From Lama guanicoe (lineage: Eukaryota), in the NCBI GenBank assembly GCA_013239625.1, contig MU053588.1, forward strand, positions 1,451,988 to 1,515,987: DNA of 64,000 bases. The letters are read 5' to 3'. The notes below the pieces were generated by a model. It saw nothing but the letters and a program-made list of their open reading frames with translations, ran no database searches and was not told the DNA's origin. Below are positions 5,171 to 64,000 of this stretch, piece by piece. How positions within the stretch are numbered: position 1 is the stretch's first letter; each line of letters begins with the position of its first letter. The position numbers were made by a program, and so were the translations under genes.

Positions 5171-6310
5171 AATTTAACACTATTTTAGCTTTTTATTTTG
5201 AAATAAAATTAGACTTACAGAAGACTTGCAAAGGTAGTACAGAGTTTCTGTGCACCTTTCATCCCCCTTCCCCTGATGTTAATCTGTTTAGTATCCACGC
5301 AAAATCAGTAGGTACAAAATTACCGCTATCCACCAATTACCATTGGGATAACTTTGTAACTGTTTAACTCATATTCTTTTTCTACTGAATATGTATCTCC
5401 AGAAAGTAATCCAGAATACAAATACAAGGATACATACAAATATATATAAGTATGTCCGTTCAATTTAATTTGCTATATGTAATACACACATACCTACATA
5501 TATGCATATTATGTACAATAGGACACAGAAGGGTTATCTCAAAATTATGTGGTGGCTTTTCTTTCAGGTGTGGTCTCCACCTTTCTCTTCCTGGAAATGC
5601 CTCTCCTATCTTTTAGATTCCTCCAGTTGATCCCAAAATATCCTCCAGAATTGACACAACATTGTAAGCGGACTATATGTCAATAAAAAAGAAAATAAAC
5701 TATTTTTAAAAATGTCATCCAGAGCTGAATTGTCCAAACCAAACCAGTATTTACTCCTAGAAGACTCACACCACATGTGGTCCTGGTTCTTAGGTCTGTT
5801 TCAATTGTCACAGTCCCCTTTGGATGATCCTGGCAGAGAATCTCCCCCTTGGGGTGCGTCTGCATGGTAAGGGGTGCAGTTCAGGGTGGGGACCTCACAT
5901 CCTTTGCATCACATCAGGAGATCTGGAACTTCTTAGGGATCCAGCAGCAGTGAGATCATGGCCCCTGGGCTGGGGTGGGGACAGCCTGATCCTGTCAGTG
6001 CCTGGTTCTCTCTCACCTTCAGAACTAGAAACTCACAATGTGGTGTCGCTGTGACACTGTACCCACACCTGCCACCTGCCTAATGCTTTTAACCCTGATT
6101 GATAACCTTCGCTGGGATGCTTCCCTTAGGGTTTAGGAAATAGGGTTTTACCTCTTCCACTCTTTCCACTGGAGACCATCTTGGTGTTTTCTTCTGTAGA
6201 GTTTTCCCTCCTCATTTGGGATAACTCTTCACTCTGAACCCATAGTCAGAGAAAGACAGCAACATTGTATTTCTATTAAAAAGATCTGTGACACTTGTCA
6301 AAATAATACA

Positions 6311-6316
6311 TTTATT
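6311..6316 (-). terminator. Polyadenylation signal AATAAA, copy 1
   Basis: About 670 nt past the stop codon; conserved at the paralogous position in all three copies. Confidence 0.65.
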
Positions 6317-6984
6317 ATCTATGATTGGCAGATATAGTGCTGCCAGTATTTCAAAAGGATTTAAAAATAACAAAAGAACTTTATACACCATATAAGTTGG
6401 GGTAGAGTTGGGCTCAGGGGACCACTTCATTTTTCACAGAGTAGGCAGAAACGTCAAACTCCAAACTTGTTTTGAGGTAGTTGACTTTCAGCTGTGAGTC
6501 CTGGTCCCAGTCTTGAAACCTCAGGAGGTTAAGTCCACCACCCGAGGAGGAGGGAATTCTCTCAGCCATAGGGACGAGGCTCCAGTCAGAGAGGAGGAGA
6601 AGGCTTCCCAGAAGGCAGCGATAAAGCCTGTTGAGCAGAAACAGAGGAGACAAGGGCAGAGGGGACTGGGGCTGAAACAGAAGGGCCTTGGGGGGAGGGG
6701 GAGGAGTCGTCTCCAGTTCCAGCATTTCCCTGTGCTCACCCGGGGGTCCCCACTCAGTGGAACAGGGGCTGCCTTAGAGAAACAGCAGCAGTTAAATCTG
6801 ATGGAGGAACTCTTCGAGTAGCTTCCAGAAACTGAAGACAGGGCCCAATAAGACCCTTGAATGGACTCAGGAGATCAAGATGCCAGGTAGCTACAAGCCC
6901 TTGATTAACGAACAAGATGTCCCAGCTAATGGTCGCAGCTCCTGGAAGGCACAGTCAGGTGGTTTTGCAAGGACAGTCCTTTGA

Positions 6985-7128
6985 CTAGGACAGAACGACC
7001 TGCACGATCACACTGGAGTTGGGCAGATAGATTCCATAATGTTTGGAACAGAACTCCATTTCACGGACCCAGTGTTCAAGAGACACAAAGCGGACGCCCT
7101 TCTTGAGGTTGGAGAACACATGGCTGAC
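6985..7128 (-). CDS. FBXO27-like: Copy 1 last coding exon (144 nt)
   Basis: cctacag| [47 protein letters not shown]. Confidence 0.93.
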   Translation of the reverse strand, partial: VSHVFSNLKKGVRFVSLEHWVREMEFCSKHYGIYLPNSSVIVQVVLS

Positions 7129-9590
7129 CTGTAGGCACAGAAAGAGGTAAGTCCCATTGTGCCATGGCCTTGTCCTCAAAAGCTGAGGTTGGGGCCTTCT
7201 GGCAGGTGGAATTTTCCACAGATGGCTGCAACAGCACCTCCAGTGCCCCCTGTACTTCTAGAATCAGACCACTCCTCATCCAGAGGTGGCGTCTAATCCC
7301 CACTCCCCTTGAATCTGGGCGGGTTTGCTTGTAACCAAGAGTGTGGTAGACATGATGCTGAGTAACTTTCACCTAGTGGCCTCCAAGGCTGGGTCAGAAA
7401 GGCAACGCAGCTTCTGCTGGTTTCTCATTCTGCTGGTCGGAACCCTCATGGGGGAGCCCTGAGCCCCCAGGAAGCAGTCTGACTGGCCTGAAGCTGCCAT
7501 GCTGTGAGGAAGCCCAAACTAGGCCACGGACAGAGGTCCCACAGCCAAGCTCTGAGACTAAACCAGGAGATGCTGGCCACCCACCAGCTGCTGTGTGCAC
7601 ACTGCACCCAGCCTGCCCCCAGCTCCAGCCAGTGTCTAAATGCAACTGTGTGAGAGTTAGAGCCAGAAGCTCCCAGCAGAGCCCCACTCAGAAACCAGGA
7701 GAGGTGATAGAATCACTGCCGTTTGTATTAAGCCACTAAACTTTAGGGCAAATTTTTTATGGAGAAATAAATTGATCATCGTAAGCCCCACATTCCTTTC
7801 CCCTCACCCCAGAGACTCACCTCAAGGAAGGAAGTGTGTCTCCTGTTCCGGATGGGGAAAAGCGTAGTAGAAAATTGATCCAGAATGGCCTGGTTGGCAT
7901 CTAGAAGTTGGATGGTTAGCCGATATATAGAGTTAATGTCTTGTTGGGCTGTCCACCTGTGGGAAAAGGGAGAACTTGAAGGCTGGACTTACCACCCATC
8001 TCTTTGGCTGGGCCTGCCTCCTCCACCTGGCTGGACTTCCCATGTGTGCAAATCCAAAATGTGGTCCCAGGGACTAGCACCATCTCTGTCACTTGGGGGC
8101 TTGGCTCACCTGCACTGATGAACTAGCAGTGCTCTTCAAGTTACTTCCCCCATAGGCTTGTCCAAAGGTATGGTCTTTGCCCTCTGCTTTGGGGAGGTAA
8201 TCTCTGGACCCTTTGAATATTATGCTGACAGGAGTATCTTTGTTTGCCTGGGGTCCTTGGGTCATATTGGATGGCCTGCCAATGTGATTTGGTGGCTGCT
8301 GGCCACACCCACATAGATGGTCTTACAATAGGGAACAGCCACCCACGGAACATAGGAGTTCCTAAGCAGCTCACACTTCAAAGCACTGGCTGTGTGCTTG
8401 ACATATAACCTTGTCTTATGAAGATAGGGTAACTGAGGCACATTGACTTGCCCCACAAAGCTGCAAAGCCAGGGTGCAAACCTGAGGGTCTGGCTCCAGA
8501 ATCTGAACTCTTACCCAACGATCCTATCTTGCCTCGTCCTGAAGTAAGAATCGTCTCATTCACAGACAAGTCTGAATTGAGCCCAAGTCCTCTGTGTTGG
8601 ACCCTGCCTGATATCTTCCAATCCAGTTCCCTCTGGGGGATAGGATAGGGGTTCAGGGAGGGCACTCTGCTAATTCCTAAAACTCTGATGGTGATTAAGT
8701 CATTTCCCGACCTGCTTTATCCTAAGGGATTGTGTTAGGAGGCCTGGATGGAGGAGTCACCTGTAAAAGAGCAGGGCTCAGCCCAGGGCTGTTTTTATCA
8801 TCACACTCACCAGTCAGAGAAACAAATCTCAATCTTGCCACTATCCAGGAGTTCAGGCCAGAAACCCTCCTCCTCCAGGTCCAACACTTGCTTCTTCTTA
8901 TGATACCACCTACAAAAGAGGGAGAAAGGTGAATGAGACTAGGCAAAGACTCACAACCAACCCGCTGGCCCTTGGGGGATAAAAGGTATTAACCTGTAGG
9001 GAGACCGGAAGCAGACCCGCAAAGGGGCCCTAGGCATAACCTCCCAGCTTTCCTCCATAGCCAGGTCGCCCAAATCCTGCACCATCATTGATTTCTGGAG
9101 GCTTCCTGTTAAAGAAAAATATTTGTCTCGGTTACTCGTCCTCCAGCTGCCCGCGGTCCCAGGGAGAAGTCCAGTGGTTTCCCGTGTGGTCCCGCCCCTC
9201 CAGCCCCTCCCACCGGCTCCCTTGAGGACGATCCCCTTTCCTGGGCTCCCCACCTTCTCTCTCACGTTTGCACAGCAGGTTGCGTCCTATGGGTCCGCGC
9301 GCGCAGAAGCGGCCCAGGAGGCAGGCACTGGCGGCGTCGGCGCGCGGCAGGCAGCTGCGGACGACCGGCCACAGGGCGCGGTGGTCCCGGGCCAGGATCT
9401 TCAGCCACAGGCCCGGGGCGTCCACCAGGGCGCGCCAGCGCCGGCACACCTGGCGGCAGCGGCCGAGCAGCGTGCGCGGGGGCAGGAGGCTCAGCACCGC
9501 CAGGAGCAGCTCCGGGGGCAGCTGGCTCAAATCCAGCACGTTCTCAGATTCCGTCTCCAGCGGGGGAACCCTGGAGGCCGAGGCGTCCAT
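6985..9590 (-). CDS. FBXO27-like: FBXO27-like F-box/FBA-domain protein, copy 1, intact, 275 aa; coding exons 9254-9590, 8994-9105, 8811-8909, 7821-7956, 6985-7128
   Basis: Manual splicing gives 337+112+99+136+144=828 nt in one open frame with GT-AG introns and ATG in gagaccATGG context. Motifs [58 protein letters not shown] and [22 protein letters not shown] match my recollection of FBXO27. Confidence 0.93.
7215..7780 (+). mobile_element. MaLR (MLT1-like) LTR in the last intron; paralogs at ~20535-21075 and ~31525-32060
   Basis: Motifs ccccttgaatctggg, gccatgctgtgaggaagccca and ttaagccactaaa..ggggcaatttgttatgcagcaata. Confidence 0.65.
7821..7956 (-). CDS. FBXO27-like: Copy 1 coding exon 4 (136 nt)
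   Basis: cccacag| [45 protein letters not shown] |gtgagt. Confidence 0.92.
8811..8909 (-). CDS. FBXO27-like: Copy 1 coding exon 3 (99 nt)
   Basis: ttttgtag| [33 protein letters not shown] |gtgagt; one codon longer than copies 2 and 3 (96 nt). Confidence 0.92.
8994..9105 (-). CDS. FBXO27-like: Copy 1 coding exon 2 (112 nt)
   Basis: ttaacag| ... TACAG|gttaat; [38 protein letters not shown]; same length in all three copies. Confidence 0.88.
9254..9590 (-). CDS. FBXO27-like: Copy 1 first coding exon (F-box domain)
   Basis: [10 protein letters not shown]...[11 protein letters not shown]; donor G|gtgggg; acceptor ctccagcag| 26 nt upstream of the ATG (exon starts at 9616). Confidence 0.92.
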
Positions 9591-9843
9591 GGTCTCCTCT
9601 CCAGGCCTGACTCTGACTGCTGGAGAGCCAGTATCAACATCAGGGACCTGCAGCCTCCGCCAGCCCCACCCCTACCACCCGCATCTCAACACTGTCAACC
9701 CTTAAGTTCCGTCAGCTGTCTTCCCAACTTCACCACTATCAGCCGGACCTTGCCAGCAGTCCATGTGAGCCCCGCTTCCGCCATGTGCACCACCAAACCC
9801 AGCAGCCAACCTCCTCCGTGGCCTCACCAACCGCCAGTCTTAC

Positions 9844-9930
9844 CCTGCATCTCCTCCAGTGCTCCTCGCCAGGGGGCTCTCACTTTGACTCAGGGGCCCC
9901 CATCTCCACTGCCCTTTTAATTGGCCAGGC
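9844..9930 (-). promoter_or_regulatory. Putative non-coding first exon and core promoter of copy 1
   Basis: Donor CAGG|gtaaga at 9844/9843, with paralogous donors near 22577 and 35602. AT-rich element ggccaattaaaa near 9915-9926. The transcription start is not determinable from sequence. Confidence 0.5.
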
Positions 9931-11008
9931 CCTCCCTTCTTAATACCCAGCACCAAGCCCCACCCTCCCTCCCAATACTCCCTATTACCAGTCAGTCTCT
10001 GCCTGCCCCTCCCTTCTTACTACCCTGCTGCCTCCGCCCTCTGCCTTGCCCAATCTTACAAGCCAGCCCCTCCCCGTCCTGCTCTCCCATACTCTCTAGT
10101 CACCCCCTTTTCAGGGTATGTTCTGACCCCTGGGTAACTAAGGTAGGAATCAGATGCGGCAGAGGAGGGAGGGGGCAGAGGCGCTGAGATCCAGAATCTG
10201 TCACTAGTCTTTGGGACCAGTGGCCCCTTGGAGTGTCCCTAACCTGCTGTAAGGCATTTGGTGCTGAACAACTGCAGTTATTTTGGTCAGGCTTCCTGCA
10301 TAAGCCTCATATCTGTTCCCTTCTGTAAAAGTTCCCGCCACCTTTAAGCACCGGGCATCACTGTCCCTGAGATCATTGCATAGGAGAAAACATGCTTCAG
10401 TAGGAAACAAATGTATTTCATCTGACTTCCTAAATGAGTGCTCCAACCAGTAATGACCCCAGCCGGCCTCATGGAGAGTTTTATTACTAGTCAGGGTAGC
10501 AAGTCCCTGAGGTAGGAATTGCTATGTCATCATTTCACATGTGAGAAAACTGAGGCCAAGTGACCTGTCCAAGGTGACAGCACTGGGATTTTAACCTAGC
10601 CTGGCTGTCTCTAGAATCCTGCTTTTAACCTCTATACTAACTCTATCCAATAAAAATGAAATGCAACCTACTCATATAATTTTGAGTATCAACAAGTAAA
10701 ACCAGACATGGATTCTGACCCAAATGGAACCTACCTTCTAGGGGGAGAGACACAGTAAACAGGAGGCAGAGTAAGCAAATTATGTACTGTTGGGGAAACC
10801 ATTAAAAGAAAAATCTCCTGTGAACCCTGAATATCCTTTCCATAAATGCAGAAAAGAATGAAACACTTTTATTATTGAAGAAGCATTAAATCAGACTATA
10901 AAGCACATGGGCCATGGTGACAGTAGACGTGATGTGTAAATTATGTGGTGTGATCAGCTCTGCGGGGAAGTAGAGCAGGGAAGGGAATGGTGGGTAAGCC
11001 ATCTGAGT

Positions 11009-16959: not shown

Positions 16960-18775
16960 GCAGGAGGAAGAACTCCTCTTCCATAAAACAATCACTCTTA
17001 AAGAGTTCACTTATAGACTTTTATTCCATGTATCTCTGTCTCATTATTTTTGAAAATATCATCATACCAACTTGATTTTCTTACTGACAAATTTCGTAGC
17101 AGAGATGACATGAATTTACTGACTTATAGTAAACCTAGGCGCCAAGTAAATGTATTATGTTTAATGCTGATGACTCTAAAGACAACTCCACACTAATCAA
17201 ACCAATAACTCAAAGTTGTTTCACTTACTGAAGATGAATCCTAGAGCACGTGATCCTTTAAAAATCTGAGTTAGTTTTGGGTAATGTTTAGAAAATATTT
17301 GATTTTTAAGTGGTTACTTTGAAGTCAATTACAGCTCTTTTACAAATGAAATTTTGATAATATTATCTGGATGTACAAATATATCATATTTATAATGTAC
17401 ACGCAGACAGACAGACATCCAGGTAGACACAACCACACTAATCAAACCAATATCTCATAGTTGTTTCACTTACTAAAGATGAATCCTAGAGCACGTGATC
17501 CTTTAAAACTCTGAGTTAGTTTTGGGTAATGTTTAGAAATATTTGATTTTTAAGTGGTTACTTTGAAGTCAATTAGAGCTCTTTTACAAATGAAATTTTG
17601 ATAATATTATCTGGACGTACAAACATATCATATTTATAATGTACACGCAGACAGACAGACATCCAGGTAGACACAGACAGAGACCTCATAGTTTTCCTGC
17701 TTGAGTTTTAAAAGGCCTTCCTCCTCCCTCTAACCCCTGCCCTTTATTTTTAATTCTTTTTTGGTATCAAGTTCTTCTAATTGAGCCAAGGCTGCAGCCT
17801 CTCAGGCAACATGGGCTGTGTCTGCCTTTCAAGGACGTGGAAAGGGTTATAACTTCAAGTTGTCTCCCAGGAGTCCTATTTCTCTTTTGAAAAGATGTTT
17901 TATCAAGCTGGCTTCTTTTAACTGTGCATGCAAAAATCAGTTTGGGAATGTCAAAAGCACTCCATCCTGGCCATTTGAGGGTTAGATTAAGTACTTGCAA
18001 GTATTGGCTCCACACCAAGTGAGAAACCATTAGTCCTCTTCACCTAGGAGATGTATCAGTACTCTCTCAAGTCTAGAAGTCTTAAGATCACCGTTCAAAT
18101 AAAAGTCATGGACCACCACCTAATACAAGGAGCTCTGAATATAAGGAAACACTCACTGAGACACCTAAATGGAGCTGTGAAGCCGAGCTGCTCAAGGGGC
18201 CCATGCCTGGTACCGAGGGCCAGTCCAAAGTAGACCTCAGGTGGGATTTTGTGTGATCAATGTCGATAGCAATGTCAATGAAAATAATGATTAAACAATC
18301 TCTTATAGGAATAGAAAAGAGTTTTATCTGAGGGAAACTGAGGATTACAATCCAAAAGACAGCCTCTCAGGTAAGCTGGAGGAAATGCTTCAGAGAAGCA
18401 TGGTTTTCAACATCATTTTCTATCTTGTCAGAACAAAGACCATCAAACAAGTCAGGGAAACATTCCTTTAAGGTTATAAAAACAAACACTTACCCAGTAA
18501 GTCAGTGTGGCCTTGGCTCCTGGGAAGGGAGTTCATGCAGGGAGGACCAGCACTGGCATCCCAGGAAGGGAGGCATTTCATCTTTATTCTTTACATGAAC
18601 ATTCCTTAACTGTGATCACTGCACCCTTTACTTTAATGATCAAAGCAGACGTACAACATATGTTTGATAGGCCACACACAGGCTGTTTTAGTTACATAAA
18701 ACTTGAGTTAAATCACGTATAAGCCAGAATGACTTCCCCATACCTGAGGATGTGAAAATTTCTTTCCAGGAAAGT
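16960..18775 (-). mobile_element. ERV internal leader region plus probable LTR (~18273-18770)
   Basis: Composition and motifs resemble an antisense ERV leader and LTR; no coding motif recognised. Confidence 0.4.
17188..17675. repeat. Direct tandem duplication, period ~245 nt, two copies
   Basis: ccacactaatcaaaccaata...ccaggtagacaca at 17188 and 17433, with few mismatches. Confidence 0.95.
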
Positions 18776-20307: not shown

Positions 20308-22284
20308 CTAGGACGGACGGACCTGCACGATCACACTGGAGTCGGGCAAATAGATTCCACAATGTTCAGAGTAGAGCTCCATATCCCAGATCCAGTGTTC
20401 AAGAGACACAAAGCGGACGCCCGTCTTGAGGTTGGAGAACACATGGCTGACCTGTAGGCAGAGAAAGAGGTAAGTCCCATTGTGCCATGGCCTTGTCCTC
20501 AAAAGGTGAGGCTGGGGCCTTCTGGCAGGAGGAATTTTCCACAAATGGCTGCGACAGCACCTCCAGTGCCCCCTGTACTTCTAGAATCAGACCACTCCTC
20601 ATCCAGACGTGGTATCTAATCACCTCCCACCTCCTTGAATCTGGGTGGATTTGCTTGTAACCAAGAGTGTGGTAGAGTGACTTTCTCCAAGTGACCTCCA
20701 AGGCTGGGTCAGAAAGGCAATGAAGCTTCTGCTGGTTTCTCCAGAACCCTCATGCGGGAGCCCTGAGCCCCTAGGAAGCAGTCTGACTGGCCTGAAGCCG
20801 CCATGCTGTGAGGAAGTCCAAACTAGACCACAGACAGGTCCCACGGCCAAGCTCTGAGACTAAACCAGGAGATGCTGGTCAATCACCAGCTGCTGTGTAC
20901 ACACTGCACCCACCCTGCCCCCAGCTCCAGCTAGTGTCTAAATGCAGCTATGTGAGAGTCCAGAGCAAGAAGCTCCCAGCTGAGCCCCACTCAGAAACCA
21001 GGAGAGGTGATAAAATCACTGCTGTTGATGTTAAGCCACTAAATTTGGGGGCAATTTGTTATGCAGCAATAGTTCATCATAGACTCCACTGACCTTCCCC
21101 CTCACCCTTGTCAGAGACTCACCTCAAAGATGACATTGTTTCTACACTGCCGGATGGAATAAGGTTTAGGAGAGAAATGGTCCAAGATGACGTGGTTGGC
21201 ATCAAGAATCTGGGCAATTAGCTGATAGACACAGTTCGTGCCTTGTTGGTCTGTCCACCTGTGGGAGAAGGGAGACCCTGGGGGCTGGGCTTGCTGCCAG
21301 TGCAGCTGCAATGTGCTTAAGTCATTTCTTGACCTCCTGCATCCTAAGGGGTTGTTAGGAGGCGTAAGTGAAGTCACTCAAGCAAAGGTCAGGGTTCAGC
21401 AAAAGGGCTGTTTTTATCACCCCACTCACCTGTGGGAGACGTAAATCTCCATCTTGCCACTATCCAGGAGTTCCGGCCAGAAACCCTCCTCCTCCAAGTC
21501 CAATACTTTCTTGTTGTAACAACACCTAGGAAAGGGGAAGAAAGGTCAATGAGAACAGGATAAGGACTCACAATGGCCCTGGCCCCTGGGAATAGGCCCA
21601 TTTACCTGTAGGCAGATAGGAGGTAGGTCAGATAAGGGAGTCCAGGAATGACCTGACAGTTTTCCTCCTCTGGCCAGTCGTCCCCATCGCTCAGCCTCAT
21701 CCATTTCTGGAAGCCATCTGTTAAGTTCAAAAAGTTTGTGCCCAAGTTCCAGGCCTGCCTACTGCTGCCACAGGGATGTCTCAGGGAGGTTCCCAGCGGC
21801 CCCGCCCCTCCGGCCCCGCCGGCCCCTCCGACTGGCTCCGGCGCAGCCACGCCCACCCACCAAATCCTTCCGGCCCCGCCCCTCGCCCCCTCTGGCGGGC
21901 TGGCTTGAGGGACTCCTTTCCTGGGCTCCACACCTTCACTCTCAGGTTTGCACAGCAGGTTGCGTCCGATGGGTCCGCGCGCGCAGAAGCGGCCCAGGAG
22001 GCAGGCACTGGCGGCGTCGGCGCGCGGCAGGCAGCTGCGGACGACCGGCCACAGGGCGCGGTGGTCCCGGGCCAGGATCTTCAGCCACAGGCCCGGGGCG
22101 TCCACCAGGGCGCGCCAGCGCCGGCACACCTGGCGGCAGCGGCCGAGCAGCGTGCGCGGGGGCAGGAGGCTCAGCACCGCCAGGAGCAGCTCCGGGGGCA
22201 GCTGGCTCAGGCCCAGTGCTTCCTTGGGCTCGGAAACCACGGGGGAACCCCGACCAGCCAGCCCCTGGAGGGTAAGACACCCAT
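20308..22284 (-). pseudogene. FBXO27-like: FBXO27-like copy 2, frameshifted as assembled (recent pseudogene or homopolymer error); exons 21934-22284, 21606-21717, 21430-21525, 21123-21258, 20308-20451
   Basis: The ATG at 22284 reads [25 protein letters not shown]. One extra base in the G5 run at 22241-22245 would restore a 279-aa frame. All other exons are open, with GT-AG sites. Confidence 0.8.
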
Positions 22285-23356
22285 GATCTCCTCGCCAGGG
22301 TAGGCTGTCCCTGTTGGAGATCCAGTGTCAAGACGTCAGGGACCTGCAGCGCCTCGTCCCCCAACCCCTCCCCTGCCAGCCGTACCCCAAGACTGTCAGC
22401 TCCCAAACGCTATCAGCCACCTCCGTATCCTCACCACCTCGAATTCTCTCCTCAAGTCCGCAGTCTCGCAGCTGGTCCTTGCCACCCACCCATCTCAACT
22501 CCTTCCCACTGTGCTCACCACAGACCCCAGCAGCCGACCCTCTCCGTGGCCTCAGGGAACCCCGAGGTCTAACCTACATTGTCAGCCAGCAGTCCTCGCC
22601 AGTGGGCTTTCACATTGCTTCACTCGCCCCAGTCTCTAATTCTGCCCTTTGTATTCTCCAGCCTCTCCCTCTTAATTCCCAGCACTATCTAACCCCTGAT
22701 CCCATCCTCCCTCTGACCTCCCAGTCTTTGCCCTCCCCTCCCTCCGCCTTGCCCAGACTGACCAATCAGCCCCTCCCGGACCCATTCCCTCGCCCCCATT
22801 CTCCAGACAGCCCCTCCTTGGGACGGTATTCAGACCACTGAGTAACTACCCAACCTAATCGGAAGCCTCAGAAGAGAGAGGTGGGGCACCGGGATCCAGA
22901 GTCTGTCACTCTTGGTCCATACCAGTGGCCCCTTGGAGTGTCCCTGTAAGGTGCTTGGTGCTGAACAGCTGCTGTTATTTTGATCAGGCTTCGGCGGGAG
23001 TCCTCATATTTGTTAGTTCCTGCAAAAATTCCCATCACCTTTAAAGGCTGGGAGATTACTTCACAGGAGAAAACGGGCCCCAGCAGGATTCAAGTGCATT
23101 TCTATTTGACTCCCTAAAAATGCAAGCTACACATATAATTTTAAATAACAGCAAGTAAAATGAGACGTATATTCTGGCCCACATGGAACCTACCTTACAG
23201 GGGGAAAGACACAGTGAACAGGAGGCAGAGTAAGCCAATTACATACTGTTGGGGAAATCATTAAACATAAAATCTGCCAACACCCTTTCCCCGAAATCCT
23301 CTCCACAAATGTAGAAAAGATTGAAACAGTTTTATTATTGAAGAAGTGTTAAATCT

Positions 23357-23667: not shown

Positions 23668-25487
23668 GTCTGACTAATCTAATTCACATGGGCCACAGTG
23701 AGCGGTAGACGTGAAGTGTAAATTATGTGGTGTGTTGGAAGGGGATCAGCGCTGCTGGAAAGCAGAGCAGGGAAGGGAATGAGGGGTAAGCAGTCTGGGT
23801 GGGGAGACCCTGAATTCTGAGAGATGGAGTGACTATTACATGGGCTTAATTTTTTTTTCAATGCATGAATTTTCAAGAAAATGTTGACTATTGAGGTTTT
23901 CAAATGGATCCCAAAGTGGAACAAGGTAAGAGCACTGGCTCCAACAGTTCACTCCAGACCAATCTGCCTTCATCTCTACTCCCCCTACCTGACTTGGTCC
24001 TCCAGGCAATTTGAAGCAAATCTTAGAAATCATACCATTCTGTCCATAGCAGTACTTATTTTTTTTAATGTAATGTGTATACTGGAAGAATCTTTTTGAT
24101 AATAAGATTATGAAAATTGATTATGATCCAACTATGAGTTTAAAAAGTAGTTTTTTAAAAAGTTAAAAAACCTCAAGTAAGATACAAGTTCAGATACTGA
24201 CAAGTGAGTGTCTTGTCCCACTCTTGAATTTCCTCCTCGGATGTAGACTGCTGTTTCTTGGTAAAACCTGCCAGTCTGATTTGCAGGAGCAGAAAATTTC
24301 TGAGCCTCAGAGCACTGGGAGGCAGGATACACAAATAATTCCGAGGACATTAGAAGCTCCACCAACTTGGCTTCCCTGCCCTCGGTTCTCCTATCCTGTT
24401 AACAGGAGTGGGGAGGCAAGCTTCACGGTGTTTTCATTCCAGGAAAGGAACTGGACTGGCAATGGGCCCTGTGTGTAGAGGGAGGTTTGGAGGGAGCAGG
24501 TAACTAGTTAACACATCTCTTCTTTCAGAAGGGTGGGACAGATTTGAAAGAAGGCTAACTTCCTAGAGGTAGGATTTAGTCTGGACAGTCCTGGGTGTTG
24601 GTAATCTAGCTCCTTCCCCCAGGCAATTCAGCCCTGGCAGGCCCTTCTCTCCTTTGAGGGGGCGTGGCGTGTGGATATTGGTGGGGAGATGGAATTTCAG
24701 GTAAAACCCTCTCAGCTCCCCACCCAACCCAGCCTCTCGGGGGTCAAGAACAGGAAAGAGCCACAAACCCTCACAAAACTTCTTTGCCCTAAAAAAGGAA
24801 TTCCTCCTACTGAAGCTACACTTAGAAATAATCAAGACCTTAAGAAAAGTTCTGGCCAGAGGTAATTTTCTAGGTTAAACACAACAGCAACAGAAGAGGC
24901 TTTACAGATCAAAACACCAGCCTGTTCCAATGGAACACACACTTAGCAGGCTTTGAAAAGAAAGAGCTGAGAGGGACAAGTTGCTGGAAGGACCAAGGAG
25001 GGCCTGGAGGGACAGCAGTGAGTAGGGAAGGTCTGTACAAAGTGGAAGGTGAGGGGTAGGAGGGCCCTCCCTGGAGGGGGAGATGGCCCTGGAGGGTACT
25101 GAGGGGCTGCCTCCTTCCAGAGGAATCCACCATACCTAATGCCCTCAGGACTGTCTAGCCAGAATATCCAAAACAGCAGACCAGGTGAGCATCCCTACCA
25201 AGGGCTTCAGCCAGGGCTGTGGCATCTGGTGTACCACGCCCAGTAACATTACTGCATACCGCTGATGGCCCATTTTGTAATTAAAGTTCATCCCATACAG
25301 TCAAAAAGACATTAATAATTCCTAAGTGTGACAAAGATCTTTCAATTTCCTTTAATAAGGGGGAGACCTTATCTTTTAGAGATATAATTGAAGTATTTTT
25401 GGAGGAAATGATAGGCTGTCTGAGATTGCATTAGAATAATCCTTCGGAGGATGGATGGAGGTATAAATTTTAAAAAGGTTAACCACA

Positions 25488-28635: not shown

Positions 28636-30597
28636 AATAACAAGCGAATCCTCCTTTACAGGGTTTTAAAAAATTAGCCCTTGGAGAAGAGAGGCAAAGT
28701 CTACTTGGCCCTTGGCCTAGAATGTGGGGAGCGGGTTGGGAGAGCACCCTGGCTGCTGGTGGCCTGAATGGGGTGCATGGATAAAGGCACCTGTGCTACT
28801 CCCACCGTGCCTTTGGGTGCTATGGGCTGGAAGCAGCAGAGAGATGATAATTGATGTACAGACCCACCTCCTAGGCTCCAGCCTAAGGGATGGTGGCAGA
28901 CAGGTGACGATCCAGAACCCTGAACTTGTCCTGTGTCCAGCTGAGCGAGTGAAAGGCATCCCAAATCAGTATGCCAGCGCTCTTCTGGCAGCCAGCCCGT
29001 GGGAGCCATCAGCTTGCCAATCTACTCACCATGGGACCCCAGGATGACCCTATTAAGGCAAGAGTCCTAGAGTGCCTCTGGGCTTCCAGCCGACCCCATG
29101 CACCAGGGTTGGTGGTGGAGGTAAAGGCAGAGCCCCTTAATTGGGCAAGAAACAGGATGAGACTCACTTAGGTCCTGATCTAAAGTCGAGGTCCATGCCC
29201 AGAGAGCCCGCAGCCCTGGCTTAGAGAATTTCCAGGAAAGTGCTACATAGGGTGGGGACCCCTTCCTGGGTAAGGATTCTCTTGATGGGGTGGGAGAGAA
29301 ACAGAAAAGTCCTGGGGGACTCCAAGGTTTCTGGTCCAAGAACAGAATAGATTTTGCTACTTTTTACTGAGACAGGATGTATGGGGAAGAAGCTGGTGGG
29401 GAAGGGGTCAGAAAATCAAGACTCAATAGGAGGGAAACTGAGGCTCAGAAAGCCAAGTCCAAAGGCATAAAGTAAGGATGTGAACCTGTTTTGTCTCACA
29501 GCCTCCAGGCAACACCACCTACCCTGGCCCCAGGGGAGGTACCATTTTTAAGCATTTGATACACTAGGCCTGGTTCTGCACGTTTCATAAATGATTTTGT
29601 TTACTCTTCCCAACAATGGACACTCTGATCCTTTTTTAGGGGGAACAAGGGGAGACTCAGAGAGATCTTGCTCAAGGTCTCAGACTGAGGGGGTGGCAGG
29701 CATCAGTCACGTGTGTGCTCCCAAAACCATTTCTCCTCTTCCATCCTGGCTCAGGCTTTCCTGAGGCTTCCTCCTCCTGGAATCAGGGAGCCGAGGGTCT
29801 CATCTTTGCCATCCAAGGGCCCCAGGGCTAATTCCTACTATTTTATTTGCATTGTTCAGACCCAGCTAGCCCCAGCTCTCACCTGGTGGCCAGCTAGGAG
29901 GTGTCAGAAGTGGGGACAAAATCTTCCTGGGTCCTGCTTCCATTGCCCCACGTAGGGGGCAGAGCAGGTAGGCGTGGGGCACCCAGGACTGGCCAGACAT
30001 GTGGGACCTGCTACCCTAGCTGTCTCAGGAGGCTGTTACCTGGAGAAGGCAGGGTCTTCTGGGGCTGGGACAGCTGTGAGCAGCAGGAGGCCTCTGTGTC
30101 TGCAAACTCGAATACTGGGGTTGCACTGGTAGCAGGATGCTCGTTTGCCCAGTTGGCACCCCAGCAAGTGAGCTGGAGACCAGGAGGGAGCCCCCAGTCC
30201 CAGCTCCTGGCCCCCTAACTGACCAGTCCAGGCCTAGTTATGCCCTGGCAGGCAGGTCCTCGGGGAGCAGGAGAAACACCAGAAAGTCACAATGTGGTGT
30301 CACTGTGACACTATACCCACATCTGTCATCCGCCTAATGCTTTTAAACCTGATTGATAATCTTTGCAAGGATGCTTTCCTTAGGCCTTGGGAAATAGGGG
30401 TCTAACTCTTCCATTCCTTCTACTGGAGAAGACCTTGCACTGTTGTTTTCCTCTGTAGAGTTTTCCTTCCGCAACTGAGACACTCCTTGCTCTGAACCCA
30501 ATAGTCAGGGAAGACAGCACCACTGTGTTTGGATTTAAAAGATCTGAGGGAAAACAAAAAACAAAGAGATCTGAGACACTTTTGGTAAAATAATACA

Positions 30598-31291: not shown

Positions 31292-34200
31292 CTAGGACAG
31301 AACGACCTGCACGATCACACTGGAGTTGGGCAGATAAATTCCGCATTGCTCAGGCTGAAAGGCGAAGTCCTAGATCCAGTGTTCAAGAGACACAAAGCGG
31401 ACACCCGTCTTGAGGTTGGAGAACACATGGCTGACCTGTAGGCAGAGAAAGAGGTAAGTCCCATTGTGCCATGGTCTTGCTCTCAAAAGCTGAGGTTGGG
31501 GCCTTCTGGCAGGAGGAATTTCCCACAGACGGCTGTGACAGCACCTCCAGTGCCCCCTGTTCTTCTAGAATCAGACCACTCCTCATCCAGAGGTGGCGTC
31601 TAATCCCCACTCCCCTTGAATCTGGGCGGGTTTGCTTGTAACCAAGAGTGTGGTAGAGTGACTTTCACCAAGTGACCTCCAAGGCTGGGTCAGAAAGGCA
31701 ACGCAGCTTCTGCTGGTTTCTCCAGAACCCTCATGGGGGAGCCCTGAGCCCCTGGGAAGCAGTCTGACTGGCCTGAAGCCGCCATGCTGTGAGGAAGCCC
31801 AAACTAGACCACGGACAGAGGTCCCACGGCCAAGCTCTGAGACTAAACCAGGAGATGCTGGTCAATCACCAGCTGCTGTGTACACACTGCACCCACCCTG
31901 CCCCCAGCTCCAGCCAGTCTCTGTATGCAACTATGTGAGAGACCAGAGTGAGAAGCTCCCAGCAGAGCCCCACTCAAACCAGGAGAGGTGATAGAATCAC
32001 TGCTGTTGGTATTAAGCCACTAAATTTGGGGGGCAATTTGTTATGCAGCAATAGTTCATCATAGGCTCCAACGACCTTCCCCCTCACTCCTGTCAGAAAC
32101 TCACCTCAAAGATGACACTGTTTCTATGCTGCTGAATGGGAAAAGACACAGGAGCGAAGTGGTCCAGGACGGCCCTGTTGGCATCTAGAAGCTGGACGGT
32201 TAGTTGATACATACAGTCAGTGCCTTGTCGGTCTGTCCACCTGTGAGAGAAGGGAAACCCTGAAGATGGACTTCCACCTCCATTTATTTCTTTGGGTGTC
32301 AAATGGCTTCCCTATGGATGCAAACCAATATGTGGTCCCTGGGACTAGCACCAGTGTCACCTGGGAGCCTGACCCCACTGCACACCCAATGAATCCATCT
32401 GCACAAAACCAGCTCCCCAGCTGGCCTGCCTGCACAACTGCTTCAGAAGTGATGACCTAGAGCAGAGCTCTTCACAGCACCTCCTCCCCGTGTTATTTCT
32501 TATCCATGTTTCACTGGTGGCAAATGATGTACAATGTGTACAACAATGATATCTGAGATACAATTTTCTTATCAGTCCTTTAAAAGGATCCAGGGGAATC
32601 CAAATCGATGATGGGATACCCAGCAACATTCAAAGAAACAACATCCAATGACCGTCAATGGTAAATGGGTAAATTATGGCATATTCACATAATGGAACAT
32701 TATACAGCCATGACAGTAAAGTAACTGCAGCTACATGCAATTATGGGTGAACTTACATGCTATTGAGAGAAGCCAGATACAAACTATATACTGTATGGCT
32801 CCATATATGTTAAGTATAAAAATGCACAAAATTCATCTACTGTAACAGAATTCAGAATTGTGCTACACTTGGGTTGGTAGTGATGGGGAAAGGGGCATGA
32901 GGGATGCTGAGGGTGGGGTTTTCTGGCATTTTCTGTCATTGATGGGGGGGCTAGTATGGTGAATGTCTTCACTTTATAATAATTCATTCAGTTGCACTCC
33001 CAAGAAATGTTCATCTTTGATGTTAGAAATTAAAAATTTAAGAGTAATGAGCTGTATAAATTCACAAACATGTATCTACTTTACAGACACTTCACATCAC
33101 TCCACTTCTCAGCGTCTATTTTAATTCTCCACAGAATTTTGTTCTCATGTTAATATATTTTCATGTTCTTCGGATTTACCTTTCACACTATTTGGTGGCA
33201 ACCACATACAAAGAATATACATTAAAAATTTTAAATTTTCTGTGACCATAAAGCTCTCAATGTTAACACTTTTTCTTTTGGACTGAATTATTAGCTACTT
33301 GTAATTTACAGACACTGCCCCAGATTGGAGTCATCTGGAATCTTGAAGATACTTTGTAGAAAAGAATTTAGCCTGGTCCAAATGTATGGCCTTTGCCCTC
33401 TGCTTCTTTGGAATATTATGCTGACAGGAATGTCTGTTTGCCTGGGGACCTTGGGTCATACTGGATGGCCTGCCAATGTGGTTTGGTAGCAATTGGCTGC
33501 ATCCACATGGGTAGTCTTATAACGGACGCCAGCCCCCCAGGAGGACTAACAAGATGACATGGGATGCATCACACAGTGTCAGTTGACTGGAGGCTGAGCT
33601 GAGAAACATGAGAAAGCCCCAATAAAGGCTCAGGTGAGCTTCCCTGGTGGCAGTATCCCATGCACATGTCACACATGATGCCAGGACAGTCTTGTGTCCC
33701 GACTCCAAGGGCAGAAGAGAGCAATGGAAGTCTGGCATTGGATTCTTCCCTTGGATGCTATCTGGTGACCTTCCCCTTGGCTGATTTTCATCTTTATCTT
33801 TTCCCTGTAATAAACTAAATTATGTATACTAGTTTTCAGTGAGTGCTATGTCTTTCTAGTCAATTACTGAGCCTGAGGGTGGTTGTAGGAACCCCCTACA
33901 CTGGCCACTGAAAGGCGGTCTTGGGATTGTGCCCTCTAACTTTGTAGTTGGCTATAAAATTCTGAGAGATGTTGATGCCTGGCTCCCTCACCCCAGATAC
34001 TTTGATTTAATGGGTATGCAGTGGGACCTAGGCATCGGGAGCTTTATACAGTCCTGGGCGATGTCTGGCAATATTTGGGAGTCACTGATTATTACCATGA
34101 AATGGTACATCATTGCTCAAAGTAACACAAACATGCTACAATAGTTTGATAAAAGATTAAATTACAAAGAGAAGTTGATTGCAAATTCATCTGCTAATGA

Positions 34201-35314
34201 TAGGGAAAACTGAGACACATTGACTGACCCAAGGCCACAAAGCTGCAAAGCCAGAGTGTGAACCTGGGAGGTCTGGCTCCAGAATCTGAACTCTTACCCA
34301 ACCATCTGGAATTGTCCCCTCTTAAAGCAAGGAGCATCTCATCCACAGACAAGTCTAAGTTGGGCCCAAGTCCTCTGTATTGGACCTCACCTGACATCTT
34401 CCAATGCAGTTCCCTCTGGGGGCTAGGAGAGGGGTTCAGGGAGTGCACTCTGCTAATTCCTAAAGCTCTGATGGTGGTTAAGTCATTTCCTGACCTGCTA
34501 TATCCTAAGGGGTTGTTGTTAGAAGGCCTGAAGGAAGTCACCCATGAAAAGTCAGCACTCAGCAAAAGGGCTGTTTTTATCATCACACTCACCAGTGAGA
34601 GACACAAATCTCAACCTTGCCACTATCCAGGAGTTCCGGCCACAGACCCTCCTCCTCCAGGTCCAACACTTTCTTGTTGTGACAACACCTAGGAAAGAGG
34701 GAGAAAGGTGATGAGAACAGGTAAGGACTCACAACCGCCCTGGTCCCTGGGGAATAGATGCATTTACCTGTAGGTAGATGGGAAGCTGGTCTGGGAAGGC
34801 GCCCCACGCAGGACCTCATAGTTTTCCTCCTCTGCCCAGCCATCCCCACCGGTCAGCATCGTCCACATCTGGAAGGCATCTGTTAAAAAGGTTTGTGCCC
34901 AAGTTCCTTTCTGCCCACCAGCCCAGGAATAAGTTCCAGGGGATTCCGGCGCAGCCCTGCCTCTCTGCATCCTCCCACCGGCTCCCTTGAGGACGATCTG
35001 CTTCCTGGGTTCCCCACCTGTGCCCTTAGGGTTCTGAAAGAGATTGCGTCCTATGGGTCCGCGCGCGGCAGGCAGCTGCGGACGACCGGCCACAGGGCGC
35101 GGTGGTCCCGGGCCAGGATCTTCAGCCACAGGCCCGGGGCGTCCACCAGGGCGCGCCAGCGCCGGCACACCTGGCGGCAGCGGCCGAGCAGCGTGCGCGG
35201 GGGCAGGAGGCTCAGCACCGCCAGGAGCAGCTCCGGGGGCAGCTGGCTCAGGCCCAGCGCCTCCTCCGGTTCGGGCTGCGGCGCCGGCCTGCCCCTGGAG
35301 GCAGAGGCACGTAT
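31292..35314 (-). pseudogene. FBXO27-like: FBXO27-like copy 3, unprocessed pseudogene; exons 35018-35314, 34768-34879, 34593-34688, 32105-32240, 31292-31435
   Basis: The start codon position reads ATA (35312-35314). A 43-nt frameshifting deletion lies at 35060/35061. An in-frame TAG at 31370-31372 replaces copy 2's TGG. Splice sites are retained. Confidence 0.9.
33350..33950 (+). mobile_element. MER21-like LTR in a copy 3 intron; partial paralog at ~8140-8370
   Basis: Motifs ggcctttgccctctgc..gtttgcctgggg..cttgggtcata; aataaa near 33808. Family name is from recall. Confidence 0.5.
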
Positions 35315-36982
35315 GGGCTCCTCGCCTGGCCCGGGTGCCCCTGCGGGAGAGTCAGTGTCAAGACGTCAGGGACCTGCAGCCTCAGCCAGCCCGGTCCCTG
35401 CCACCCGCACCCCACGACTGTCAGCCTCAACCCCGTCAGCTGCCTCCCCATCCTCACCGCCCCCCCACCCCCGCCCGGTCCTCAAGTCCCCAGATTCCCA
35501 ACCAGTCCTTGCCAGCAGACTATCTCAGCCCCTCTCCCCAACACGCACCACTGCCCCTGGCAGCCAATCCCCTCTGTGGCCTCTCGGACCCCCGAGTCCT
35601 ACCCTGCATCTCAGCCAGTGCTCCTCGCTGGTGGGCCTCCACTTTGCCTCACTTGCTCCCATCTCCTCCGCCGCCCTTTTTATTCACCTGCGCCTCCCTT
35701 CTTCATACCCAGCACCGTGGGCTCCCACCTCACAGCTCCATCCTCCCTCGGACCCAGTATCTGCCAGCCCTTCCCGGCCCCGGCCCCGCCCCCTTATTCA
35801 CCAGACTACTCTCCTTCGGACTTCATTCGGACCACAGGGTAACTAACCACCAGCCTAACCACCAGCCGAACAGAATCGCAGACCCCACAGATGAAAGAGG
35901 GATGGGGGCTGCCAGGATCCAGAGTGTGTCACTCATCGTCTCCACTAGTGGCCCCTTGCTGCTGAACAACTGCTGTTATTTTGGTCAGGTATCCAGGCAG
36001 GAGGCCTCATATTCTTTAGCTCCTGTAAAAATTCCCATCACCTTAAAGGCAGGGCATCACTATGCCAGGGGGTCACTTCACAGGAGAAAACAGGCTCCAG
36101 CAGGAACCAAATGCATTTCTATTTGATTCTCTGATTGAGTGCTCTGACCAGCGATAACCCTAGCCAACCTTCAGGGAGTGTTTATTCTACCAGCAATGTC
36201 CTGTAGTGGTGAGTGCTATGTCCCCACTTCACAGGTGAGAAAACTAAGGCCAAGTGACCTGCCCAAGGTCACAGCTAGTAGCTGACAGAGCTGGGATTCA
36301 AACCTAGCCAGGCTACCTCTAGAATCTTTGCTGTTAACCTCTATACCAACTCTACCCAATAAAAATAAAATATGAGCTACATATACAATTTTAAACATCA
36401 GCAAGTGAAACCAGACATGGATTCTGGCTCACATGGAACTTACCTTCTAGGGGGAGAGATGTGAACAGGAGTCAGAGTAAGCCAATTATACACTGTACAA
36501 GAAATCATTAAAAATAAAATCTCCTGTGAACCCCCAAATATACTTTCCACAAATGTAGGAAAGAATGAAACAGTTTTATTATTGAAGAAGCATTAAATCA
36601 GACTGTAATGCACATGGGCCATGGGGAGCAATAAATGTGACGGGTAAATTACATGGTGTGTTGGAAGGGGATCAGCGCTTGGGGAAAGTAGAGCAGGGAA
36701 GGGAATGGGGGATAAGCCATCCGAGTGGGGAGACCCTGAATTCTGAGAGACGGATTGACTTTTATATGTGCTTAATTTCTCTTCAATATACGGATTTTCA
36801 AGAAATTGTTTACTATTGAGGTTTTCAAACAGATCCCAAAGTAGAACAGGGTAAGAGCACTGGCTCTAACAGTTCACTCTGGACCAATTTGCTTTCATCT
36901 CTTCTCCCACCCACTTGCTCTCCTGGGCTATTTGAAGTAAATCTTAGAAGTCACACTACTCTGTCCATAGCAATATATTACT

Positions 36983-42289: not shown

Positions 42290-42780
42290 GAAAAACCCAG
42301 ATGTTTCTTTCCTATGTAGGGAAAACCCCAGTTCTTCCTGCTGAGTTTCTCCCCATGTGTCTCCTTTACTTCTCACACAGAACACTTCACTTGTGACACT
42401 CTGGTCCCCAACTGTGTGGAGGTCCCCCCACCCCCCCATAAACGATTCTCTGTGACACCAGCAGGAAGTCCAAAAGTCTTACAATTTAACTCAGTTCTGA
42501 CACTATCTACCATAAGATAGTTCAGATCCCACAGTTTAAGGGCTCAGTCCCACAAGACTGCCCCCTCCCCATCAGATGCCAGTCTCAGGCCCTGGTTATC
42601 GCCTGCGCTTCTGACCAACTGGCTATGGGTCTACAGATGAGACGTTCCAAAGACCCCTTCCTGGAGTTCAATTAATTTGAAAGGGTGGCTCACAGAACTC
42701 AGGGAAACACCTTTATCAGTTTATTAAAGGATATGACAAAAGATACAGACAAACAGCCAGATGAAGAGATACACAGGGTG
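42290..42780. mobile_element. LTR-like element; related copy at ~44130-44830
   Basis: Both share tgtagggaaaa.cccagttcttcc and acaatttaactca.ttctgac.ct.tctacc..agatag..cagatcccaca. Confidence 0.55.
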
Positions 42781-63229: not shown

Positions 63230-64000
63230 TCGCAAGGGAAGAAACCGAGGCCCAGCGAGGTCGAGTAACCGGCCTGGGGCAACCGCTGAGAAGCAGCGCT
63301 GCGGTTGGGTGGACTATGATTTTCTCTTCACAGCAAGCCCGGGGGCCTGGCGAGGAACCAGTGTGGGCTAAGATTGCAAAGAGAGGAAGGCGCAAAGAAT
63401 TGCAAGGACTACGAAGCTGCGGCTGCGGGAAGGGATGCGGGAAGGGATGGGGGAAGCCCCCCGGTCGCAGGCTCTGGTGCCTCCACACCTGGGTACCTCG
63501 GGATCCGACAGCCCCAGAAGTGGGGGCCAGTGTCCGTGCCCTGGGGGCTTCGCAGCCACGGGTGGGGCTCCTGGGGGACAGGCGCAGCCTTACCTGTCCC
63601 GGCGCTCACCTGGTGGCCGACTTGGAGGTGGCGGCGGAGGCGTAGCAAGCCTTCCTGGGTCCCCTACCCTCGCCCCGCCCTGGGGGGTGGGCGGGTGCGC
63701 GTGAGGCGCTCAGGACCGGCCGGACCTGTGGGACCCGGGGCCCCGGGTGTCTGGGGAGGCCGTCAAATGGAGAAGGAAGGCTCTTCCGGGGCTGGGACAA
63801 CTGTGGGCGGCGGGATACCTCGGCGCTTGCAAACATAAATACCGCCGTAGTAGTGGTGGCAGGAGACGCGTGCGGGCAGCTGGCGCCCGCGAGGGTGAGC
63901 CGGGGACAGGGACGCAACCCCCAGCCCCAGCTCCTGGCCCCCGGATGGACGGTCCTGGCTTGGCTCTGCCCAGGCAGGCAGGTCCTCTGGAAGCTGGAGA
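63230..64000. promoter_or_regulatory. CpG island, probable promoter/first exon of the neighbouring gene (possibly ACP7 by recalled human synteny; not shown by sequence)
   Basis: About 33 CpGs in 63601-64000, GC boxes (ccccgccc, gggcggg), TATA-like cataaata at 63834, donor-like GAGG|gtgagc at ~63895. Confidence 0.7.

Follow-up and report, generated by a model that had tools for sequence, protein, structure and literature searches.

Recurrent interlocus gene conversion very probably keeps an F-box tract identical among tandem FBXO27-derived genes of the guanaco

Three tandem FBXO27-like genes, A, B and C, each with six exons on the minus strand, lie in the 64,000-nucleotide stretch of Lama guanicoe DNA analysed here (the window). 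They share a tract within exon 2, 241 nt long in A and B, that is identical in every copy down to its silent sites and lies amid introns and upstream DNA that are 20–37% different between copies. This tract is very probably kept identical by recurrent interlocus (non-allelic) gene conversion among the FBXO27-derived copies. Silent-site, tree and read evidence supports this reading, and with it the interlocus conversion proposed in a first-pass annotation of the same DNA.

The best protein matches of the copies are camelid FBXO27-like proteins. Copy A (6985..9850, minus strand) is intact, with an exon-1 ATG at 9850, exon 2 at 9620–9254 (ATG at 9590) and later exons at 9105–8994, 8909–8811, 7956–7821 and 7128–6985. 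Its splice joints 9254/9104 and 8992/8907 are also present in an intronless retrocopy contig, and its FBA domain is that of the alpaca protein P0008 at 162 of 162 residues. In copy B (20308..22579, minus strand), the FBA exons (21717–21606, 21525–21430, 21258–21123 and 20451–20308) are open and match those of A in conservation, with 2 of 158 aligned residues differing from Camelus. The exon-1 ATG of B is followed by a TAG, and its exon-2 ATG (22284) is not in the F-box frame and opens a 25-codon reading frame; the Camelus models P0094 and P0001 have the same frame relation. That B is a dead gene is unsupported, given its closeness to Camelus in the FBA domain and the database models that gain the frame via another splice site, and B may be used through such a site. 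A CAG at about 22267 is a possible alternative acceptor. Copy C (31292..35609, minus strand) is broken twice: its tract has lost 43 nt, and its last exon contains a premature TAG at 31372–31370. Its FBA domain differs from that of Camelus at 13 of 99 residues and from that of alpaca P0028 at 10 of 135, where A and B differ at 0–1; C is a mosaic or a different copy, and whether it is the orthologue of Camelus C is uncertain.

The window exon matches PF00646 and PF12937, PF04300 is found at E 1e-54 in P0008, which has the FBA domain of copy A, and the PDB matches are FBXO2, FBXO44 and FBXO6. By these matches, the window genes are FBA-type F-box genes, with the F-box followed by the FBA domain. 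F-box, linker and FBA are common to them and FBXO27/Fbs3, which the available text of PMC6389600 describes as a glycan-binding SCF receptor for lysophagy; the same text assigns a role to myristoylation in FBXO27 and gives the three-part layout of F-box, linker and FBA for Fbs1. FBXO27/Fbs3 proteins are the nearest named relatives of the window genes, and FBXO17-like sequence lies nearby in the window. The window genes differ from FBXO27/Fbs3 in being multi-copy, and their FBA domain is about 59% like that of horse FBXO27, whereas non-artiodactyl FBXO27s are 93–94% alike. An N-myristoylation start (Met-Gly) is absent: A begins with MD (exon 2) or MQ (exon 1), C is without an exon-2 ATG and the Met-Gly of B is out of frame. 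In Fbs1, Tyr279 and Trp280 form the aromatic pair of the sugar pocket. The corresponding pair is FC in A and LY in B, placing Cys and Tyr, respectively, at the position of the Fbs1 Trp280. The pair is FW in 7 of the 8 canonical rows used as outgroups, the exception being an aberrant isoform, versus 4 of 49 artiodactyl rows. Judged by the Met-Gly start and the pocket Trp, the window genes are not FBXO27 proper.

A search with pangolin FBXO27 gave, among the 120 of 225 matches listed, named artiodactyl FBXO27-like proteins at no more than 61% identity and most carnivore, primate, rodent, horse and afrotherian FBXO27s at 70–99%. No named artiodactyl occurs among the members listed for nine canonical FBXO27 clusters (15 of 85 in the largest; one cluster is unnamed), and bat FBXO27 is likewise absent among the listed matches. 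These results are suggestive only of an absence of canonical FBXO27 in artiodactyls.

The converted tract occupies 9289..9529 in A and 21969..22209 in B, both on the minus strand. Self-comparison of the window confirms that the two are identical at 241 of 241 nt, silent sites and CpGs included, as the first-pass annotation had claimed, with no exact extension possible at either end. In C, the tract spans 35053..35257 (minus strand) and contains the 43-nt frameshifting deletion; here too the earlier claim holds, with 0 differences in 190 nt between 9340–9529 and 35061–35250. The exact match of B with C is 197 nt long, reaching 22216/35257. The deletion is flanked by 7-nt microhomologies, with its breakpoint within 35061–35067, and the 15 nt beyond it are likewise identical to the tract of the other copies. 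Around this deletion, C retains 0 differences in 198 nt, so that a dead copy does share the tract, as had been stated.

The tract encodes the F-box, the linker and the first FBA residues (codons 21–101 from the exon-2 ATG of A), the Pfam F-box covering residues 21–65 and the FBA model beginning at about residue 96 (P0008 numbering minus 12). Exon 2 extends 91 nt before the tract and 35 nt beyond it to the donor, and the tracts of neighbouring copies are spaced 12,680 and 13,041 nt apart. Within it are 79 whole codons, 68.7 synonymous sites and 31 CpGs; GC is 78% and GC3 is 97.5% (0.975 versus 0.64–0.67 in the FBA exons). G/A/R/P residues make up a share of 0.43 in the tract of camelids, 0.31–0.34 in other artiodactyls and 0.42 in canonical FBXO27. 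Since the canonical share is close to that of camelids, the GC-rich residue share may be ancestral.

On either side of the tract the copies are clearly diverged, as the annotation had said of the N-terminal codons and the next intron: A and B differ at 36 of 91 positions in the portion of exon 2 upstream of the tract and at 54 of 145 in the intron directly after the tract exon. Exons 3, 4, 5 and 6 differ at 39/112, 15/96, 39/136 and 16/144 positions, respectively. In the FBA exons, silent divergence (pS) is 0.25–0.26 in all three copy pairs and dN/dS between copies is approximately 0.6–0.9. The longest identical runs among the copy pairs are 241 (A–B), 207 and 205 nt, versus a maximum of 70–75 nt in 5,000 column shuffles (70 nt for A–B). 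With mismatches as rare as in the most similar 3′ part, a 241-nt run has a chance probability of about 5e-11, and the probability of zero silent changes in the tract, given the pS of the FBA exons, is about 1e-9. These silent-site tests apply to the window copies, whereas comparisons across species are at the protein level and use automatic gene models.

Contigs from four public DNA runs (four coded organisms, three studies; 4 of 24 runs listed) were compared over positions 8700–10200. Runs X1 and X2 each contain a separate 241-nt contig that corresponds exactly to 9289–9529 with 0 differences, and run X5 contains a 190-nt contig on 9340–9529; for run X11, a tract contig is absent among the rows listed. 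The depth of the tract contigs versus their flanks is 67.5 versus 11.5–12.6 (X1), 79.6 versus 30–31 (X2) and 83.3 versus 21.6–38.5 (X5), although depth is not a copy number, Logan contigs lose rare variants and one run is possibly the assembly's own source. Greater depth is expected of a collapsed exact repeat; the contigs support the identity without proving it. The deletion of C is not among the indels or joints listed for the run contigs. Among full-length camelid protein models, 25 of 26 tracts, from four camelid species, equal the 79 residues of the window (isoforms and re-annotations are counted separately and partial tracts are excluded); the remaining model, P0093, has two private changes. 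Assembly collapse or polishing, which the annotation had named as the finding that would undo its reading, is an unlikely source of the identity, with same-ended 241-nt contigs in two of the four runs and the deletion of C retained.

Relatives that lie outside the converting set have drifted in the tract as elsewhere, as two diverged contigs, each present in all four runs, indicate. One is a 2.4-kb intronless retrocopy of class A, in which exon 2 has 37–38 other letters and 41 gap letters and is diverged by approximately 10%, as are exons 3 and 4. Its contig is without introns 2 and 3 and runs on into exon-5-like and exon-1-like sequence (relatives of window positions 8808–9620). As a processed retrocopy of an A-class mRNA, it implies germ-line expression. 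The proteins P0105 and P0126 probably correspond to this retrocopy and keep older residues in the tract. The other is a 3-kb contig that is just 82% alike over 9250–9439 and represents an unconverted FBXO27-like paralog. Separately, loose contig ends at 8824 hint at a second retrocopy, of another class.

A second zone of homogenisation, older or partial, covers intron 5, exon 6 and the 3′ UTR (6300..7820, minus strand). It is about 90% alike among A, B and C and contains identical runs of 54–96 nt; intron 5 differs at 62/663, 53/664 and 44/666 positions in the three copy pairs. Exon 4 and the beginning of exon 6 look partly homogenised too, and exon 4 seems, from its sequence, to have been exchanged between copies as well. 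The start of exon 4 in C (34688–34593) resembles alpaca P0013, not P0028 or Camelus C.

Beyond the genes themselves, an FBXO17-like stretch (63695..63802, minus strand; compare the 5′ extension of a mustelid FBXO17 model) was identified by tblastn with P0189 (67% over 36 aa), together with a second, decayed FBXO17-like copy (30051–29968, minus strand; 57% over 28 aa). In a self-blast, 29871–30274 matches 63598–64000, and the FBXO17-5′-like sequence comes after a gene copy. The beginning of FBXO17, the neighbouring gene, thus appears to be part of what was duplicated. Near 29.87 kb, a segment resembling that at 63.6 kb meets one resembling that at 43.4 kb (29238–29876, 42764–43397), as if the unit of B were missing about 20 kb. 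A further paralog probably lies to the right of the window. Segments 710–1937 and 24263–25487 are 91% alike, versus about 80% in other upstream regions; they lie upstream of B and of another copy that probably exists to the left of the window, and would reflect a later duplication or conversion. A head-to-tail duplication of approximately 250 nt, 96% alike, is located at 17180–17675.

In a tree of the tract (57 rows), the 9 camelid rows all fall in a single clade (100/99), in which 8 are identical, and whales, hippo and ruminants are grouped (99/97); forcing camel A together with whale A is rejected on these data (p-AU 0.001). The FBA tree from exons 4–6, by contrast, groups whale A and camel A (95/90) and unites the E copies of pig, hippo, whale and ruminants (93/96), and the tree from exons 3+5 again unites camel A with whale A (93/99). 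Lineage labels change 10 times on the tract tree versus 18 times on the FBA tree. A single camelid clade is not rejected with exons 4–6 (p-AU 0.33) and is rejected with exons 3+5 (p-AU 0.036; 34 rows, these exons having been chosen after the result for exons 4–6). In both FBA trees, camelid E falls among other camelid classes and apart from whale and pig E. The predicted pattern, in which F-box tracts cluster by species and FBA exons by paralog, was thus found, with the FBA exons clustering only largely by class. Classes A, B, C and D occur in both Camelus and alpaca, and at least one FBA class predates the camelid–whale split.

Protein identities follow the same division. Between camelid classes, the tract is 98–100% alike and the FBA domain 63–70%, whereas between camel and whale copies of class A the tract is 65–69% and the FBA domain 66–71% alike. 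Pairs of classes within a species give, for tract versus FBA, 95 versus 64% in blue whale, 92 versus 69% in Lipotes, 90 versus 67% in narwhal, 92 versus 69% in hippo, 93 versus 60% in muntjac and 90 versus 60% for Bos E/G, and in each pair the N-termini differ in the same exon. One bovid class escaped, with a tract identity of 66%. Gene models in tandem arrays can be chimeric; a pig E/F pair (99%) and a reindeer row, which probably are, were included in the trees and not counted as evidence. The idea that the tract is frozen between camelid genera was dropped, with 0 of 79 changes in the tract versus 7 of about 163 in the FBA domain of A (p 0.10). In a metagenome scan for relatives, 181 pattern matches gave two loci, each of them an unrelated F-box gene.

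The 3′ end of exon 2 of copy B occurs in three forms: a B form in the window and in most Camelus models, an intermediate form in P0009/P0099 and an A form in alpaca P0007. In X2 and X5, the 3′ flank contig of A ends at 9318, as the window predicts; in X1 it ends a single base before the A/B-diagnostic site 9288 and in X11 a single base before 9265, where all X11 contigs have the B letter, although contigs cannot phase such sites. The contig ends and the forms of exon 2 fit variable tract ends. The window pairs its flanks as Camelus does, A5′ with A3′ and B5′ with B3′. Alpaca P0008 combines a C-type 5′ with an A-type 3′ flank and alpaca P0004 an A-type 5′ with a D-type 3′ flank, and similar mis-pairing is seen in a fragmentary C. 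ferus assembly (P0006, P0094). The alpaca pairings could reflect real crossing-over at the tract or mis-assembly.

Repeated unequal crossing-over in the tract, which turns copies over and yields hybrid genes, can coexist with conversion but is unlikely to have done most of the homogenising. The pairings in alpaca P0008 and P0004, unlike those of the window and Camelus, would fit it, as would the 10 of 135 FBA differences between C and P0028 if C is a mosaic and not another copy. However, the copies diverge again to the left and right of the tract, the pairing of A and B flanks that the window shares with Camelus would not survive a single crossover, and mis-pairing is also present in the fragmentary assembly. 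It is very unlikely that assembly collapse or polishing turned near-identical tracts into identical ones, even though short-read contigs pop bubbles, single-base differences could hide and the tract can trouble assemblies: in the scaffold-level C. ferus assembly, P0094 is garbled and partly doubled, and P0006 pairs flanks unlike P0093. The private 43-nt deletion of C lies inside the tract, contigs of independent runs share their ends, protein models of four camelid species agree and P0093 retains its private changes; moreover, an artefact could erase only a few differences and would leave the tract much more similar than its flanks.

Purifying selection alone, whether on the protein, splicing, RNA structure or the CpG island, is extremely unlikely to account for the identity of the tract. 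The tract is a conserved F-box module whose GC3 constrains silent-site composition, and its excess of conservation over the FBA domain of A between genera is not significant. Nevertheless, 0 changes at 68.7 silent sites stand against a pS of 0.25 elsewhere, the broken C is still identical, and camel and whale copies that share an FBA class differ by 31–35% in the tract, whose sequence is therefore not dictated by function. The lineage clustering of the tract largely refutes selection alone, and the earlier judgement that such selection is insufficient is upheld. A recent duplication with flanks diverging fast afterwards is barely credible. The FBA domain is highly diverged at the protein level and the 3′ parts are about 90% alike, as such a history could allow, but introns and upstream DNA are far apart, classes A–D are found in Camelus and alpaca alike and class A has whale counterparts; the neutral divergence of the flanks already refutes it.

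Recurrent interlocus conversion would proceed by double-strand-break repair templated by the neighbouring copy about 13 kb away. The tract is the only long near-perfect homology left between copies, and its identity would therefore be self-sustaining. Of the annotation's alternatives, 'recent or recurrent', the second stands, since homogenisation of this tract is also seen in Camelus, whales, hippo and ruminants; one recent event fits less well. Conversion would be tolerated in the SKP1-adaptor module, which all copies would need, and working copies under selection would set the shared sequence, with broken or out-of-frame copies as passive passengers. Exons 3 and 5, at 25–35% divergence, would be too different for conversion, and selection would probably act against it there as well. 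A contribution from GC-biased repair and from the CpG-island setting is possible, and GC-biased conversion at the tract is plausible. Conversion mediated by cDNA is disfavoured: the tract edges lie inside exon 2, 91 nt and 35 nt from its ends, and intron 5 is homogenised too.

Concerted evolution limited to one module, with a divergent specificity module, is known from tandem families including protocadherins, RH, opsins and histones. For primate Fbxo6/Fbxo44, the available text of PMC3984280 gives GENECONV evidence of conversion over nt 1477–1707, that is, the F-box and part of the FBA domain, and reads it as one event in a primate ancestor. That case resembles the present one in its tandem F-box and FBA paralogs, nearly equal tract size and conflict between gene tree and species tree, so far as PMC3984280 describes it. 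The genes studied here differ in belonging to an FBXO27-side cluster, in having at least four copies and not two, in including a broken copy and in extending over several artiodactyl lineages. For human duplicates, the accessible part of bioRxiv 10.1101/135152 reports non-allelic gene conversion with a mean tract of 250 bp, GC bias and dependence on similarity, and expects duplicates to escape conversion while diverging. The tract length here is similar, and the unconverted relatives resemble such escape; unlike that expectation, one island stays identical inside flanks diverged by 20–37%. As the modelling in bioRxiv 10.1101/135152 expects escape with divergence, long persistence would need an added selection step.

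In a literature search that covered few subscription journals, no paper on an artiodactyl FBXO27 array or on FBXO27 gene conversion was found, and the one paper listed for FBXO27/FBXO17 duplication and evolution concerns NCCRP1. Three papers listed for FBXO27 and tandem paralogs are, judged by their entries, unrelated, and no mention of FBXO27 occurs in the 25 of 2,444 and 15 of 504 entries listed from broader searches. The mechanism itself is already known, including for the F-box domain in the sister cluster Fbxo6/Fbxo44; what this array adds is a second, independent FBA-family cluster with nearly the same tract converted in several lineages. An adaptor module that is homogenised while the substrate module is kept apart thereby becomes a repeatable, testable rule. 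At this locus, F-box-based orthology, gene models, short-read variant calls and flank pairing are unreliable. Canonical FBXO27 features are seemingly lost in the artiodactyl array, which would bear on lysophagy in livestock and whales. It is conceivable, though doubtful, that artiodactyls swapped the single lysophagy lectin FBXO27 for tandem receptors without lipid anchor or sugar pocket, in which the shared, re-homogenised SKP1-adaptor cassette acts as a recombination joint that still shuffles promoters and N-termini among FBA modules. If so, South American camelids would carry differently shuffled hybrid genes.
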